Below are positions 1 to 39,993 of a stretch of DNA of 64,000 bases, one piece after another. The notes beneath the pieces were generated by a model. The model saw nothing but the letters and a program-made list of their open reading frames with translations. It was not told the origin of the DNA and made no database searches. This DNA comes from Clostridia bacterium (GTDB lineage: Bacteria > Bacillota > Clostridia > Oscillospirales > CAG-272). The stretch is taken from NCBI GenBank assembly GCA_017462485.1, contig JAFTRA010000006.1, positions 1,275 through 65,274 of the forward strand, read 5' to 3'. Each line of letters begins with the position of its first letter. Position 1 is the stretch's first letter. Position numbers and translations under genes: made by a program.

Positions 1-218
1 TTTGTAAATTCGGCAGAATAAAGAATGCCGTTTTTAAAAGGGCGCACGAGAATTCCTTCTGCCGCATTCTCTGCGGAAAGGGCGTCTCTGCCAACAGAAA
101 TGATGCGACGGGTATTTTTATCAATTATAGCAATAGAAGGCTCGCGGCCTACCTCAAGCGAGGCATCACTTACAGTGATATTGGCATATCCGAGGTCAAG
201 ACCAATTTTTGTTACCAT
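1..218 (-). CDS. MreB/Mbl-like actin-fold protein, N-terminal part only; the gene runs off the window start
   Basis: The minus-strand translation from the ATG at 218 reads MVTKIGLDLGYANITVSDASLEVGREPSIAIIDKNTRRIISVGRDALSAENAAEGILVRPFKNGILYSAEFT. This resembles the MreB N-terminus (IGIDLGTANT...EPS..A......AVG..A....P.....RPmkdGvI). An AAGGAAG RBS lies 7-8 nt upstream. The plus-strand ORF at 25..234 is treated as a shadow of this gene. Confidence 0.5.
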   Translation of the reverse strand, partial: MVTKIGLDLGYANITVSDASLEVGREPSIAIIDKNTRRIISVGRDALSAENAAEGILVRPFKNGILYSAEFT

Positions 219-360
219 ATCGCTTCCTTTCTGAAAATTGAAATTCTCTGCTTCTTATATTATAGAATATTTTTTATCAAATTTCAAGCATATTTATAAA
301 AAATTATACTTTTTTCGTGTAATACCCGCACGTCATCATAATTGAGCAGAAAAAAAGGAA

Positions 361-35387: not shown

Positions 35388-36248
35388 TCAGTTTTTATGC
35401 TCCGAGAGATAGTCGGAAAGCTTAACAAAATCCTCCGTGCTGAGTCTCTCACCACGTACATTTTCACTCTCGCCTATATCAAGTATAGCGGCGCTTATCA
35501 GCTCCTTGCTATATCCAAGCTTTGCGGACAGAGCGTTTTGCAACGTTTTTCTTCTCATTTCAAATGCGGCTTTTATAGTGTTTCTGAAAAGCTTTTCGTC
35601 TTTAGGTGTATATAGAGGCTCTTTATATAAATCTATTCTTACAACGGCGCTGTCAACCTTAGGTGCGGGAACAAAACAACCCGCAGAAACCTTAAAAAGC
35701 TTTTTTACAGTTCCGTAATAGCCCAAAATAGCCGTTATCGCTCCGTAATCGGAGCTTCCGGGCTTTGCAGCAAGCCTTGCCGCAACCTCGTTCTGCACCA
35801 TTACGGTTATAGATGAAAATTTTACGCCCGATTCAAGAAGATACATAAGTATCGGCGTAGTTATATAGTACGGCAGATTCGCGCATACGCTGACGGGCAT
35901 TCCATCGCTATACTCTTCTACCAATCTGCAAAGATCTATTTTCATTACGTCTTCGTTTATAACCGTAACGTTATCAAACTCGGCAAGCGTTTTGTCAAGA
36001 ATTGGAATCAAACCCCTATCAATTTCAATCGCCACTACCTTTCTGTATCTAGACGCAAGCTCGGCAGTAAGACAGCCGATTCCGGGACCTATTTCTATTA
36101 TAAGACTTTCAGGATTCTCAGTGCAATTATCCGCAATATCCTCGGGAATAATGCGATTCGTAAGAAAATTCTGACCGTATTCTTTTCTGAACGTAATTCC
36201 CGCATCTGACATCAATGTTTTGATGACGGAAAGATTGCATAAATCCAT
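35388..36248 (-). CDS. rsmA: 16S rRNA (adenine1518/1519-N6)-dimethyltransferase
   Basis: Contains YGQNFL, EIGPGIGCLT and NLPYYITTPI. The start was set at the internal ATG at 36248. Confidence 0.92.
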   Translation of the reverse strand: MDLCNLSVIKTLMSDAGITFRKEYGQNFLTNRIIPEDIADNCTENPESLIIEIGPGIGCLTAELASRYRKVVAIEIDRGLIPILDKTLAEFDNVTVINEDVMKIDLCRLVEEYSDGMPVSVCANLPYYITTPILMYLLESGVKFSSITVMVQNEVAARLAAKPGSSDYGAITAILGYYGTVKKLFKVSAGCFVPAPKVDSAVVRIDLYKEPLYTPKDEKLFRNTIKAAFEMRRKTLQNALSAKLGYSKELISAAILDIGESENVRGERLSTEDFVKLSDYLSEHKN

Positions 36249-36277
36249 AAATACTCCCAAAAATATTAAAATTGCTA

Positions 36278-36306
36278 TTGACAAATAAAAAAGAAAATGT
36301 TATAAT
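36278..36306 (+). promoter_or_regulatory. Sigma-A promoter of tRNA-Thr
   Basis: TTGACA, a 17-nt spacer, then TATAAT, ending 10 nt before the tRNA 5' end. Confidence 0.65.
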
Positions 36307-36316
36307 ATACGGGCGT

Positions 36317-36392
36317 GCTGGTGTGGCTCAGTTGGTAGAGCAGTTGATTCGTAATCAACAGGTCACCGGTTCAAGTCCGGTCACCAGCTCCA
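36317..36392 (+). tRNA. tRNA-Thr (anticodon CGU), CCA encoded
   Basis: The cloverleaf is perfect. The acceptor stem is GCTGGTG/CACCAGC, the D arm is GCTC-AGTTGGTA-GAGC, the anticodon arm is GTTGA-TTCGTAA-TCAAC and the T arm is ACCGG-TTCAAGT-CCGGT. The discriminator is T, followed by CCA. Confidence 0.95.
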
Positions 36393-36440
36393 GTTAAGAA
36401 GAGAGTTAACAGCTCTCTTTTTTTCTTTGTTTTCAGTGAC

Positions 36441-36613
36441 CTGAGATTACTAATCAATGTGCTGCTTCACAGCACGATTCGTAATTTGCTCGTCAAGCGA
36501 GCAATGTTCCAACAGGTCATTTTATAGTTAAGGTGAGTCGGTTAAAATCCACGGTCACCAGCTCCAGTTAAGAAGAGAGTTAACAGCTCTCTTTTTTTTC
36601 TTTGTTTTCAGTG
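36441..36613 (+). pseudogene. Degenerate tRNA-Thr-derived copy B (tRNA 3' half interrupted by two insertions) plus terminator
   Basis: It retains GATTCGTAAT (the anticodon loop with CGT), CAACAGGTCA and CGGTTAAAATCCACGGTCACCAGCTCCA in tRNA order. These are separated by a 24-nt hairpin insert (TTGCTCG-TCAAG-CGAGCAA) and an insert of about 19 nt. The 5' half is replaced by unrelated hairpin GTGCTG-CTTCA-CAGCAC. Confidence 0.6.
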
Positions 36614-36890
36614 CAGCCGTAAGAGAACCGAACTCATAAGGTTTTATCGGATGAATTTCTCCATATCCTTCACCGAAATTCCCTTAAATATCATATATTC
36701 CTCAAAAATTTCAGTTCGCCTATGAAAAAATTCATTCCGTTAAAACTGCTTCGCATCTTATGGCGAATAAATTTTTGATGGATTTTGTTGTAATGAGCCG
36801 CAGTAAAGTGCCACTTTACAAGGATTAGTACGACGAAAGACGCTAAAATTTATCGTCTTAAGACTTGTTAGTTCGATTCTCTTACGGCTG
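36614..36890. mobile_element. 277-bp element bounded by 21-bp inverted repeats (MITE-like, or a long-stem RNA)
   Basis: CAGCCGTAAGAGAACCGAACT at 36614-36634 pairs with AGTTCGATTCTCTTACGGCTG at 36870-36890, 20 of 21 positions complementary. The interior is AT-rich and has only micro-ORFs of 18-24 codons. A truncated relative sits at 37060-37098 (CAGCCGTTAGA...GTGGCTG). Confidence 0.45.
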
Positions 36891-37059
36891 GGATTACTAA
36901 TCAATGTGCTGCTTCACAGCACGATTCGTAATTTGCTCGTCAAGCGAGCAATGTTCCGGGCAGGTCATTTTATAGTTAAGGTGAGTCGGTTAAAATCCAC
37001 GGTCACCAGCTCCAGTTAAGAAGAGAGTTAACAGCTCTCTTTTTTCTTTGTTTTCGGTG
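36888..37059 (+). pseudogene. Degenerate tRNA-Thr-derived copy C plus terminator
   Basis: It is nearly identical to copy B. The difference I noted in the body is CCAACAGG changed to CCGGGCAGG. Confidence 0.6.
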
Positions 37060-37374
37060 CAGCCGTTAGAATTATCAGTTCAATTTTATTGTGGCTGGGA
37101 GCTCGAATCAACCCAACATTAAGAGCAAAATACACACAACACCAACTATACATAACAATTATACAACATAATACAGAAAAAATCAAGTAACCGAATAATA
37201 AAATAATCAAAAATTTCGATAATATTATAATTTTGAAAAATAATAACGTACAAGACTTAAAACCGTATGCTTGCAAGTATATGAAAACAATTATATCCAA
37301 GCAATTAATTTCCCTGGCACTTCCGCTTGGTATTTCCAAAAAGCATAGATTGTATTAAAAAATAATATTTTAGA

Positions 37375-37400
37375 GCTGCCGCAAAAATAAATGCGGCAGC
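37375..37400. terminator. Hairpin terminator between the tRNA-Thr repeat region and the ATPase gene end
   Basis: The hairpin is GCTGCCGCA-AAAATAAA-TGCGGCAGC, followed by a T-run on the plus strand. It lies 17 nt from the ATPase stop. Confidence 0.55.
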
Positions 37401-37416
37401 CCGTTTTTTGATATTT

Positions 37417-39993
37417 TTAGCTTATTTTTTTGAATACTCTTCTGGCAATATCGAACGGAATTACACTTAAAGCAAGGAGAATAACGTTCAAAAGCTCACG
37501 AAAAGTCAGAGGCGCGCTTCTGAAAACCTCGCCGCCGAAATATATCATCAATATCTGTATAGTAGCTATTGCAGCCATTATCAGTAAGAACGGCTTGTTT
37601 TTAGACAGATTCGAGAAAAGCGAGAGCCTTTCGGAACGGGTATTGAAGCAATTAAACAATCCGGCAAACACGAACAAAGCATAAAAGCCCGTAAGGAAAT
37701 AGAGATTATTCTCTTCCGTTCTAAAAAGGGCTCGGAAGAAGTCAAGCTTTAGGAACATCACACATAAAAGAAGAGTATATGAGCCGGTAATCAATATTTG
37801 AGTAAGCATTTCACGCGAGAGAATCTTCTCTTCCCTTGACTTCGGCATTTCCATCATATAGTACTCAAGCGGAGCTTCTCCCGCAAACGCCAAACCGCCA
37901 AGCGTATCCATAATTATATTTATCCATAGCATCTGGATAATGGTTATAGGATTCTCTATCCCTATAAACTGACCTATAAGCGAAACTCCGCAGGCAGTTA
38001 TATTCATCATAAGCTGAAACGATATAAATTTTCTTATAGATTTGAATATCGTTCTTCCGTACAGAACGGTTTTTGATATTGCGGTAAGACTATTATCCAA
38101 AATAACTATATCTGCGGCGCTTTTGGCAATATCCGTGCCGCTTCCCATAGCAAAGCCGACGTCGGCAAGCTTCAGCGAGGGAGCGTCGTTTATTCCGTCA
38201 CCCGTCATTCCTACGACGAGTCCCAACTCCTGAGAAAGCCTTACGAGCCTACTTTTATCCCTTGGGAGCGCTCTTGCGACAACGTATAGCGACGGTATTA
38301 GTGCTTTAAGCTCATCATCACTCATTTTTTCGATTTCATCGTGCGTAAGGACACCTCGGTCTATGCCTCTCGGCATAATTCCGCACTCCTTCGCTATAGC
38401 GACGGCTGTTTCCCTTCCGTCACCCGTTATCATAACGATGCGAACGCCTGCCGAGAGCGTTTTTTCAACAGCTTCTCTGACACCCGAGCGAAGCTTATCC
38501 TTAAGAACAGCAAGAGCGAGAAATACACGCTCAGCATCCTTTTCAATACATATCGCAATAACACGCTCGCCCAAAGAGGCGCACTCTTTATATTTTTTGA
38601 AGATATCCGTCATAGAAACTAGAATTTTTCTTCCCGCGGAATCAACCGCGTATTTGCAAGGCGGCAGAACTATTTCGGGAGCTCCTTTTATAACTCTTTC
38701 CCCCGTTGCAAGCGTTACAGATGAGTATTTTTTATCGCTGCTGAACTTTGTGACGTCAACGATTTTCCCACTTTCAAGAGCTTCCGACTCGAAAAATTCG
38801 AAAAGAGCCTTATCCGTGCTGTTTCCGCTTTTTTCCATCTCTAAATCTGATGCGCCTTTTTTAGAGCTTATATTGATAAATTTATATACGTACTGGTTTT
38901 TTTTTAGACTTTTTGCGCTCTTATATACCGAGTCGTAGGTAATTATTCTGTCCACCGAGGTTTTTCCGGTGGTCAAGGTTCCCGTTTTATCGGTAAAAAG
39001 TATGTTCATTGAGCCCGCGGTTTCTATTCCGACTAGCTTTTTGACCATAACGTTATCGCTTAGCATCCTTTTCATATTTGCGGAAAGGACAACGGTTATC
39101 ATCATTGGCAGCCCCTCGGGAACGGCAACTACGACAACGGTTATCATAAGCGTTAAGGCGTGCGTCAGCGTGCTTACAACAAACGGAATATTCTTAAAGG
39201 ATTCGAATATTTTTTCTCCTGAATATCCGTTATCCGAAACAAAGCTGAAAAAGAGGTAAACAAAGCCTACGAGCGCCGCCATAAAATAACCTATCTTGCT
39301 TATCTGCGACGCAAGCTCACCAAGCCTTAATTTCAGAGGGCTTTCACGGGTTTCCGCTTGAACGTCCTTTGCAACCATTCCGTAGTAGGTATCCTTACCG
39401 ACCTTATTCACCTTGACAAGTCCTTCACCGTTGCACACCAGCGAGCCACGAAAAACGTCTTTTTCCGAAGAAAAATCGCCTTTTTTTGATTTTCCGCCCG
39501 AAAATTTCGACGTTTCAACGCCCTCACCGTTGAGCGCGGATTGGTCAACCGATATTTTGCCATCTATGATTTCACCGTCGGCAAAAACGCAATCTCCTGC
39601 CTCTACACGCAATACGTCTCCGACGACTATATCGTTAACGGGTATTTCGCAAATGATTCCGTCACGTATAACACTTGCGCGAGCAGCATTGTTTTCCTCT
39701 TCCATTCGAAGAAATGCTTTCTCGCTTCCATATTCGGATACGGTCGAAACAGTTGTGGCTATCAGAACGGCCGCAATAATTCCTCCTACTTCCAGCCAAT
39801 TACACCGCCCCAGAGTAACTACCACCTCCAAAAGCACGGCAAAAATCAGCACCTTAATTATAGGGTCGGATAGATTTTCAAGGAATTTGCGAAAAAAGCT
39901 CTTTGTTTTCTCTCTCGCTAGCGAGTTGTCTCCGTGCTTTTCTCTTGCTAGTATGACCTCACTCGACGACAAACCTTTTATGTTCTTTATCAT
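37417..39993 (-). CDS. Cation-translocating P-type ATPase (P2, Ca2+-type)
   Basis: The phosphorylation site is FTDKTGTLT. Also present are MITGDGRETA and the hinge MTGDGINDAPSLK. There are about 10 transmembrane segments in 858 aa. Confidence 0.88.
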   Translation of the reverse strand: MIKNIKGLSSSEVILAREKHGDNSLAREKTKSFFRKFLENLSDPIIKVLIFAVLLEVVVTLGRCNWLEVGGIIAAVLIATTVSTVSEYGSEKAFLRMEEENNAARASVIRDGIICEIPVNDIVVGDVLRVEAGDCVFADGEIIDGKISVDQSALNGEGVETSKFSGGKSKKGDFSSEKDVFRGSLVCNGEGLVKVNKVGKDTYYGMVAKDVQAETRESPLKLRLGELASQISKIGYFMAALVGFVYLFFSFVSDNGYSGEKIFESFKNIPFVVSTLTHALTLMITVVVVAVPEGLPMMITVVLSANMKRMLSDNVMVKKLVGIETAGSMNILFTDKTGTLTTGKTSVDRIITYDSVYKSAKSLKKNQYVYKFINISSKKGASDLEMEKSGNSTDKALFEFFESEALESGKIVDVTKFSSDKKYSSVTLATGERVIKGAPEIVLPPCKYAVDSAGRKILVSMTDIFKKYKECASLGERVIAICIEKDAERVFLALAVLKDKLRSGVREAVEKTLSAGVRIVMITGDGRETAVAIAKECGIMPRGIDRGVLTHDEIEKMSDDELKALIPSLYVVARALPRDKSRLVRLSQELGLVVGMTGDGINDAPSLKLADVGFAMGSGTDIAKSAADIVILDNSLTAISKTVLYGRTIFKSIRKFISFQLMMNITACGVSLIGQFIGIENPITIIQMLWINIIMDTLGGLAFAGEAPLEYYMMEMPKSREEKILSREMLTQILITGSYTLLLCVMFLKLDFFRALFRTEENNLYFLTGFYALFVFAGLFNCFNTRSERLSLFSNLSKNKPFLLIMAAIATIQILMIYFGGEVFRSAPLTFRELLNVILLALSVIPFDIARRVFKKIS

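Follow-up and report, generated by a model that had tools for sequence, protein, structure and literature searches.

A two-hairpin module repeated behind tRNA-Thr(CGU) in Clostridia is a candidate read-through trailer of the tRNA

Introduction

In Escherichia coli, the non-coding 178-bp RtT repeats (RF00391, rttR) lie in tandem directly 3′ of the tyrT-tyrV tRNA genes and in the same orientation. Each of these repeats reportedly ends in a copy of the tRNA 3′ end including CCA, as Egan and Landy (in 1978) and Bosl and Kersten (in 1991) are said to have described. Here we analyze a stretch of 64,000 nucleotides from a Clostridia bacterium genome (the window; the genome is called G000, and other G and L numbers denote relative genomes and loci), in which a tRNA-Thr(CGU) gene is followed by two co-oriented non-coding units, B and C, each ending in a copy of the tRNA 3′ end. 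The RtT region, whose function is still unknown (10.1101/2024.07.17.603846), is the closest published analogue of this locus, and the likeness is one of layout only. The clostridial module is not a member of the RtT family: a search at E ≤ 10 over positions 35800-37800 gave no RF00391 match, the tRNA and the phylum are different, and each unit comes with an intrinsic terminator of its own, two covarying hairpins and an inversely copied anticodon region, with no small open reading frame (ORF) comparable to tpr.

Partial tRNA copies 3′ of an intact tRNA gene are also a mark of tyrosine integrases, in the form of attL/attR arrays, cis-mobilizable elements (CIMEs) and tycheposons, the last of which have been described to stack serially (10.1101/2020.12.28.424599). 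Like those repeats, the partial copies in the present units extend from the anticodon loop, a classical crossover sublocation, to the tRNA 3′ end. Unlike them, they lack an integrase and cargo, and none of the mobile replicons searched carries a counterpart; moreover, a conserved hairpin interrupts the partial copy, and the parts that do not derive from the tRNA appear to be under structural selection. A further resemblance is to the attC sites of integrons, where a variable imperfect hairpin stands between an inverse core and a core; it is structure and not sequence that is conserved, and the sites form same-orientation arrays beside a primary site. The module has this layout (ACGAATC ... GATTCGT, with a covarying apical hairpin), but the resemblance is formal: there are no cassette ORFs, and the core is a tRNA anticodon loop. 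No recombinase lies near the units and IntI was not seen, in searches that were not aimed at IntI features.

The thrS operator of E. coli is an mRNA-leader mimic of the tRNA-Thr anticodon arm, and thus also an RNA element that copies this sequence outside a tRNA. In the module, however, the anticodon sequence would be paired with its inverse copy rather than displayed in a loop, and it would belong to a tRNA trailer rather than an mRNA leader. We found no description of the module in the literature on RtT, partial-tRNA arrays, CIMEs or repeats 3′ of tRNA genes.

Results

Architecture and predicted fold of the module

We lean slightly toward reading units B and C as copies of a conserved, non-coding, folded trailer of tRNA-Thr(CGU) that is transcribed by read-through and whose arrays change by recombination. 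The descriptive conclusions about the locus are solid, and the RNA-trailer mechanism stands at about even odds.

The module has the following consensus order: terminator, left arm (an inverse copy), variable hairpin 1, the decamer GATTCGTAAT, hairpin 2, TGTTGCA plus one variable base, tRNA positions 43-76 including CCA, and a final terminator that copies the tRNA's own. The decamer is invariant across all units, and the consensus of hairpin 2 is TTGCC-loop-GGCAA. The left arm reads ACGAATC in most lineages; in the genus of G000 it is the reverse complement of tRNA positions ~27-52, and that of unit B corresponds to the tRNA anticodon arm plus CAGGTCACC. In the predicted fold the left arm pairs with the decamer, so that the copy of the anticodon loop is buried in a long hairpin. 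Left arm and hairpin 1 together give a mean fold z of −2.8 in 57 units, and in the genus of G000 an extra helix (GTGACCTG with CAGGTCA) is predicted to close a three-way junction, which is also the shape predicted for unit B (−43.9 kcal/mol, z = −4.5). The GTAAT of the decamer can also pair with GTTGC on the 3′ side of hairpin 2, where the few changes are of the type U.G to U-A; this pairing would explain the invariance of TGTTGC.

The units hold no ORFs, and a tRNA gene or pseudogene was rejected as their identity. At this locus ARAGORN and Rfam call only the intact gene, and neither ARAGORN nor RF00005 at E ≤ 10 matches unit B or C. The Rfam search over 35800-37800 matched tRNA alone, and returned neither a T-box (RF00230) nor a tmRNA.

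Selection on the two hairpins

Among 61 distinct sequences, hairpin 2 shows compensatory double changes at four pairs. Its covariation score is 0.102, compared with 0.040 ± 0.006 in shuffled alignments (none of 500 shuffles reached 0.102) and 0.006-0.047 in control registers slid by 1-3 columns. A pair that our search motif held constant is itself swapped in units found only by a covariance model (TTGGC/GCCAA in G073 and G069, TTGACC/GGTCAA in G187). Hairpin 1 shows double changes at four of its seven pairs, with 95.5% of cells paired in 16 units of the genus; these counts come from a genus-only alignment (A4) and per-sequence folds, and a MAFFT alignment of the hairpin 1 region of all types (A2), which was out of register, did not enter them.

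The tRNA-like 3′ part behaves differently. The copied T arm is AT-rich and decayed in G000, G053 and G170 and intact in G098 and G188, and in G195 the CCA end has decayed in all units. Because the hairpins keep pairing while the T arm and the CCA end decay, sequence comparison indicates that the constrained part is the two-hairpin module and not the tRNA-like 3′ part. As to the strand, sense folds contain 94 G.U pairs and antisense folds 14, the sense fold is the more stable in 40 of 57 units, and the outer P1 pairs are G.U; this asymmetry points, weakly, to the tRNA-sense strand as the one that folds.

Distribution

In G000 the unit occurs at this locus only. A similar unit lies behind the tRNA-Thr of G005, and the exact motif GATTCGTAATTTGC-N5-15-GCAATGTT was present in 8 of 213 genomes of the genus. 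With one genome for each of 185,579 species, a similar motif (ending GCAATG) gave 44 loci, 36 of them real; the other eight were rejected as chance matches inside ORFs of unrelated phyla. A motif anchored on hairpin 2 gave seven real matches in metagenome contigs, all of the tRNA-Thr(CGU) type, along with 19 chance matches in ORFs. Finally, R1, a covariance model of the core and hairpin 2, found units in 13 genomes among the genus loci with an rsmA/tRNA-Thr layout, including diverged units that the exact motif had missed. Within the genus at least 13 species are thus known to carry the module; genome-wide it is known from about 33 species, and seven metagenome contigs have it as well.

All real loci are in gut or rumen Clostridia metagenome-assembled genomes (MAGs), labelled Eubacteriales, Christensenellaceae or Oscillospiraceae, and nearly always the unit is directly 3′ of tRNA-Thr(CGT) and in its orientation. 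No other anticodon context was found in species-representative genomes or in the metagenome scan, which had hairpin 2 as its sole anchor. Inside the genus, RsmA is 73-87% identical to that of G000; the figure is 58-61% in module-bearing genomes outside the genus and 43% in a Christensenellaceae MAG, and in G229 the module sits at the same rsmA/tRNA-Thr locus with synteny kept. The distribution is wide but patchy.

These results bear on a first-pass annotation of the locus, made from the letters alone, which had suggested looking for the repeated unit elsewhere in the genome and in relatives. The unit did not prove multi-copy in its own genome, yet it does recur behind the same tRNA in relatives. 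The simple local tandem duplication that the annotation would have preferred for a unit found nowhere else is therefore rejected as the whole story.

Changes in the arrays and read-through of the terminator

Relatives differ in copy number, from 0 to at least 4, and their arrays terminate in a partial unit. In G118, whose RsmA is 86% identical to that of G000, the tRNA, terminator, left arm, hairpin 1 and the same distal flank are present with zero units, and the terminator is that of G053 and G170. This is the expected product of a crossover between the block of tRNA 3′ end and terminator and the same block of the last unit. The boundaries of the zero-unit state fall inside the repeats, and repeat recombination explains it as well as excision at the core does. 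Unit 3′ ends and terminators match each species' own tRNA, which fits gene conversion or recent duplication, and hairpin variants are common to sister species (G098 with G188, G053 with G170). The module-bearing G073 (RsmA 73%) is more distant from G000 than the module-less G013 and G007 (77-79%). These comparisons make it probable that the module is old in the genus and subject to frequent loss.

The genus has a second gene order, tRNA-Thr followed by rsmA, in which the rsmA start codon lies 16-25 nt past the T run of the same type of terminator. At this distance rsmA probably depends on read-through, and the terminator is therefore probably leaky. At four such loci (L007-L010, in G013, G012, G007 and G001) there is no room for a promoter of rsmA (ksgA) itself, which suggests a tRNA-Thr-rsmA operon expressed through the terminator. 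At L117 (G122:C91:8835-10490), beside a contig end, a tRNA-Thr segment is flanked on both sides by the rsmA 5′ end in opposite orientations; this could mark an inversion between the gene orders of the genus (tRNA then rsmA, or divergent), or an assembly effect.

Several arrays have themselves been interrupted. In G053 and G170 an insert of ~140 nt lies exactly between hairpin 1 and the GATTCGTAAT of the second unit (L024:1650-1810 and the equivalent in L029). It begins with GTAAGA, and since the distal flank starts with the same GTAAGA after the terminal hairpin 1, part of the flank has been duplicated into the array. At L050:3000-4200, L036:3140-3346, L056:900-950 and L100, the terminator hairpin of a unit is split by an element with hairpin-like ends (CTTCTCGTAAGGAAG ... 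AACTTCCTTATGGGAAGTT); the L050 insert is ~1.2 kb long and encodes an XRE-type helix-turn-helix (HTH) protein with a membrane tail. The arrays act as landing pads. At L039 (MAG UBA1779; 1-360, minus strand of the locus), the position of the two-hairpin module is upstream of tRNA-Thr, with the promoter on its other side, and two 25-nt mini-repeats of the tRNA 3′ end (T run + ATCCCACCACCAGCTCCA) come after the gene.

The locus in G000

Coordinates of all features are given in Table 1. The promoter layout recurs in relatives, X1 is homologous to the tRNA-Thr terminator in unit-less members of the genus, and the region contains five terminator-like sites where 0.9 are expected. The triplication of the tRNA 3′ end and terminator described in the first-pass annotation was recovered by a repeat finder as three direct copies starting at 36379, 36553 and 37001. 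Its account of the units also held: tRNA-derived blocks follow in the right order (the decamer, CAACAGGTCA, a degenerate T-arm region), and they are broken up by the two hairpin segments. In unit C the equivalent of CAACAGGTCA is GGGCAGGTCA, and the 5′ strand of P0 has been displaced by a miniature inverted-repeat transposable element (MITE). Units B and C are, as had been proposed, nearly identical (99% between 36441-36510 and 36888-36957, 96% between 36513-36606 and 36961-37054, by the repeat finder), and they are a recent local duplicate pair within G000.

Table 1. Features of the tRNA-Thr(CGU) locus, in coordinates of the 64,000-nt window
Feature	Position	Strand	Description
Sigma-70-type promoter of tRNA-Thr	36278..36306	+	TTGACA, 17 nt, TATAAT; TG-extended; 12/12 consensus
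tRNA-Thr(CGU) gene, CCA encoded	36317..36392	+	ARAGORN; Rfam RF00005, 73.4 bits
Intrinsic terminator X1	36396..36432	+	12-bp A/U-rich hairpin, then T run
Unit B (whole)	36436-36566	+	Ends in last 14 nt of tRNA, then terminator copy
Unit B left arm	36436..36455	+	Inverse copy of tRNA positions ~27-52; 5′ strands of P0 (GTGACCTGA) and P1 (GATTACTAATC)
Unit B hairpin 1	36459..36475	+	GTGCTG-CTTCA-CAGCAC
Unit B core decamer GATTCGTAAT	36476..36485	+	Copy of tRNA positions 30-39 (anticodon loop); pairs with left arm
Unit B hairpin 2 and conserved TGTTC	36486..36509	+	TTGCTCG-TCAAG-CGAGCAA; hairpin proper 36486-36504
Unit B tRNA-derived 3′ part	36510..36566	+	CAACAGGTCA, decayed AT-rich T-arm region, then GGTCACCAGCTCCA (36553-36566)
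Terminator X2	36570..36606	+	Hairpin identical to X1
277-bp MITE	36614..36890	.	Terminal inverted repeats (C)AGCCGTAAGAGAACCGAAC ... GTTCGATTCTCTTACGGCT(G); unrelated to tRNA units
Unit C	36891..37014	+	P1 5′ strand from 36891; R1 model match, 46.8 bits
Unit C hairpin 1	36906-36922	+	
Unit C core	36923-36932	+	GATTCGTAAT
Unit C hairpin 2	36933-36951	+	
Unit C copy of tRNA 3′ end	37001-37014	+	
Terminator X3	37018..37053	+	Hairpin identical to X1
Decayed, internally deleted MITE copy	37060..37097	.	CAGCCGTTAGAA ... GTGGCTG; read from sequence, compared with MITE ends
Terminal partial left arm GGAGCTCGAATCAACC	37098..37113	+	Truncated start of a further unit

The repeats of the tRNA 3′ end had been described as separated by small cargoes of about 115 and 390 bp. 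The second of these is mostly a 277-bp segment (36614-36890) with inverted ends (CAGCCGTAAGAG ... CTCTTACGGCTG) and a fold z of −7.6. Because it has terminal inverted repeats, no coding capacity, multiple dispersed copies and a short target duplication, it is a MITE. Its terminal repeats are ~20 nt long as read from the copies, and the repeat finder extends them to 45-nt arms that are 78% complementary; the sole ORF is 48 aa. Full copies lie elsewhere in G000 at C47:15350-15626 (87%) and C10:22470-22751 (86%). The family numbers at least three full copies and about 15 that are partial or solo ends, and several lie at the ends of contigs. TA flanks most copies; at the tRNA-Thr locus the flanks are CA/TG. 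No autonomous copy with a transposase was identified among the copies in G000. The decayed copy after unit C occupies the same relative position; the MITE site is filled twice, one copy being full and the other decayed. A multi-copy element that includes the units was rejected: only the 277-bp spacer is multi-copy.

Search for mobile-element links

The exact motif had no match in 2.9 million viral contigs, a scan of viral contigs for the pair of inverse core and core gave seven matches, all by chance inside ORFs, and blastn against plasmid and phage collections did not return the module. As had been noted from the sequence, there is no tyrosine recombinase in the window; the four matches of the genome lie on other contigs or ~64 kb beyond the window end. 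An HUH/Y1 transposase that might serve as a partner is also absent from the genome. As in att repeats and CIMEs, direct repeats of a tRNA segment bound inserted DNA and the partial copy begins at the anticodon loop, but no integrase lies in cis, and no related integrase element with the same arms was found among the sequences searched.

Integrase-bearing elements with the same attachment core had been suggested as something to look for, and one was found. In the Christensenellaceae MAG G230 (L110, C12:11800-23200), a 10.7-kb element interrupts the anticodon loop of the host tRNA-Thr(CGU) without rebuilding the gene. At its junctions GATTCGTAAT is joined to TATATAC, and AATATAT to TTCGTAATCAGC (L108:1500-1535, L044:6710-6730), and the crossover core is the same sequence as the core decamer of the units. 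Besides a complete tRNA-Thr(CGT) of its own, the element carries genes for a tyrosine integrase of 472 aa, an HTH repressor, a Viral_Rep/S3-helicase protein and an M23 peptidase, and it looks like a case of 'tRNA-dependent lysogeny' (PMC10865867). The core is thus shared, but the arms differ and it is the tRNA itself that is split; the element used the tRNA and not the two core copies just downstream. It was rejected as a source of the module, the reconstructed attP arms being unrelated. The unrelated arms, this choice of site, and the lack of viral, phage and plasmid copies argue against the units as integrase products.

Discussion

Of the two ideas put forward in the first-pass annotation, remnants of integration and excision (or miniature integrative elements) are not favored, given the lack of a viral, phage or plasmid copy and of a nearby integrase, and the single orthologous locus. 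Its other idea, expressed tRNA-like RNAs with their own terminators, appears to fit better, because the hairpins covary, G.U pairs favor the tRNA-sense strand and the terminators are kept. We propose that the module is old and mostly vertically inherited, and that selection on folding of the tRNA-sense strand would keep it. It is predicted to be transcribed as a trailer through a leaky tRNA terminator, as RtT is behind E. coli tyrT. Arrays would then grow, shrink and vanish by homologous recombination between the repeats of tRNA 3′ end and terminator, not through an integrase. Possible roles of such an RNA are masking or mimicry of the anticodon arm, or that of an insulator in processing or termination.

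Several observations weigh against this reading. The best candidates for a promoter belonging to the units match 9 of 12 positions, lie in the AT-rich decayed T-arm region and are no better than in shuffles. Units of one array can carry different terminators (L063, L036, L075), and at L033, L042, L049 and L088 some unit 3′ ends (GCTTTCCCCTGCTCCA) differ from the resident tRNA; there is a hint here of separate arrivals, which would explain both more simply. The module is absent from all 150 other genomes surveyed in 30 families of the order, and its patchy distribution could also mean horizontal spread. The G.U evidence is weak because a few conserved pairs are counted repeatedly in related sequences. 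Finally, the order of inverse core, hairpin and core resembles a folded recombination site.

It is possible, if doubtful, that the units are gene-less integrative cassettes, in which a folded site (ACGAATC ... GATTCGT) mimics the attachment site in the anticodon loop of tRNA-Thr(CGU). Insertion of such units would be serial, as with integron attC, a CIME or the folded attP of CTX phage, and would be the work of a tyrosine recombinase whose gene lies elsewhere. TTCGTAAT, the anticodon loop, does serve for attachment in this group, as the G230 element splits tRNA-Thr exactly there, and the units start at the same decamer. Their inverse core, variable hairpin and core are conserved in structure and not in sequence; and the mixed terminators and foreign-looking 3′ ends, the patchiness across the order and the presence in G000 of three other tRNAs with inserts bounded by repeats of their own 3′ ends would all be accommodated. 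Yet viral contigs, phages and plasmids yielded no copy of the module, no integrase is nearby, and the attP arms of the G230 element are unrelated to it, with the tRNA used over the downstream core copies. Insertion at the tRNA's own core would, moreover, put hairpin 2 inside the tRNA, which was never seen. Hairpin variants common to sister species at one orthologous locus, and a zero-unit state that repeat recombination predicts, also weigh against the cassette reading. A related proposal, that the units are non-coding cassettes of an integron-like platform anchored on the tRNA, with attC-like sites (inverse core, variable hairpin, core) made from the anticodon-loop attachment sequence of tRNA-Thr(CGU), and captured or shuffled by a tyrosine recombinase acting in trans, we regard as unlikely.

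We also consider it unlikely that the units are neutral scars, that is, an old partial duplication or attachment-site remnant whose copies are kept alike by gene conversion and recent duplication. Such concerted evolution would account for the match of unit 3′ ends and terminators to each species' own tRNA and for the 96-99% identity of B and C, and decay of the T arm in several lineages and of the CCA end in G195, like the frequent losses, would be expected of scars. However, gene conversion with the tRNA cannot maintain parts that are not tRNA; many compensatory double changes have left hairpins 1 and 2 paired, and the TGTTGCA junction is identical across hosts at 43-60% RsmA identity to G000. 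Pure neutrality is thus unlikely.

A function as double-stranded DNA seems improbable. The module would then be a site for a dimeric regulator or recombinase, with half-sites TTGCC/GGCAA, or a decoy attachment site that spares the tRNA, and the invariance of the outer half-sites of hairpin 2 and the perfect copy of the integrase core would be as expected. The center of hairpin 2 is, however, self-complementary and covarying, which is needless in a spacer between half-sites, G.U pairs imply a single strand, and the G230 element chose the tRNA and not the decoys. A simple tandem duplication private to this genome, which the near identity and adjacency of B and C might have suggested, is refuted by the same module in many other species and metagenomes.

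If the module does act as RNA, as in the read-through trailer that we prefer, it would mean that the RtT phenomenon, whose function stayed unexplained for decades, has evolved independently a second time, and hairpin covariation across dozens of species gives enough natural variation for designing experiments. If it is instead a folded recombination site, we would be dealing with a cassette system of a new kind, devoid of genes and tied to the anticodon loop of a tRNA. Where a tRNA 3′ end is repeated and no integrase is present, the repeats should not automatically be taken for integration scars, a caution that is relevant to programs that call genomic islands with partial tRNAs as boundaries.

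Three further tRNAs of G000, tRNA-Val(GAC) (C2:61671-62200), tRNA-Gly(GCC) (C37:22702-23070) and tRNA-Pro(CGG) (C38:97963-98222), are each followed by inserts of 160-430 nt that are folded and non-coding. Their sequences are unrelated to the Thr module. Each brings a terminator of its own and closes with the last 14-17 nt of its tRNA, copied in direct orientation. In the Val and Pro inserts, the left arm copies the T-arm region inversely; the Gly insert, which matches only loosely, consists of two tandem three-hairpin units.

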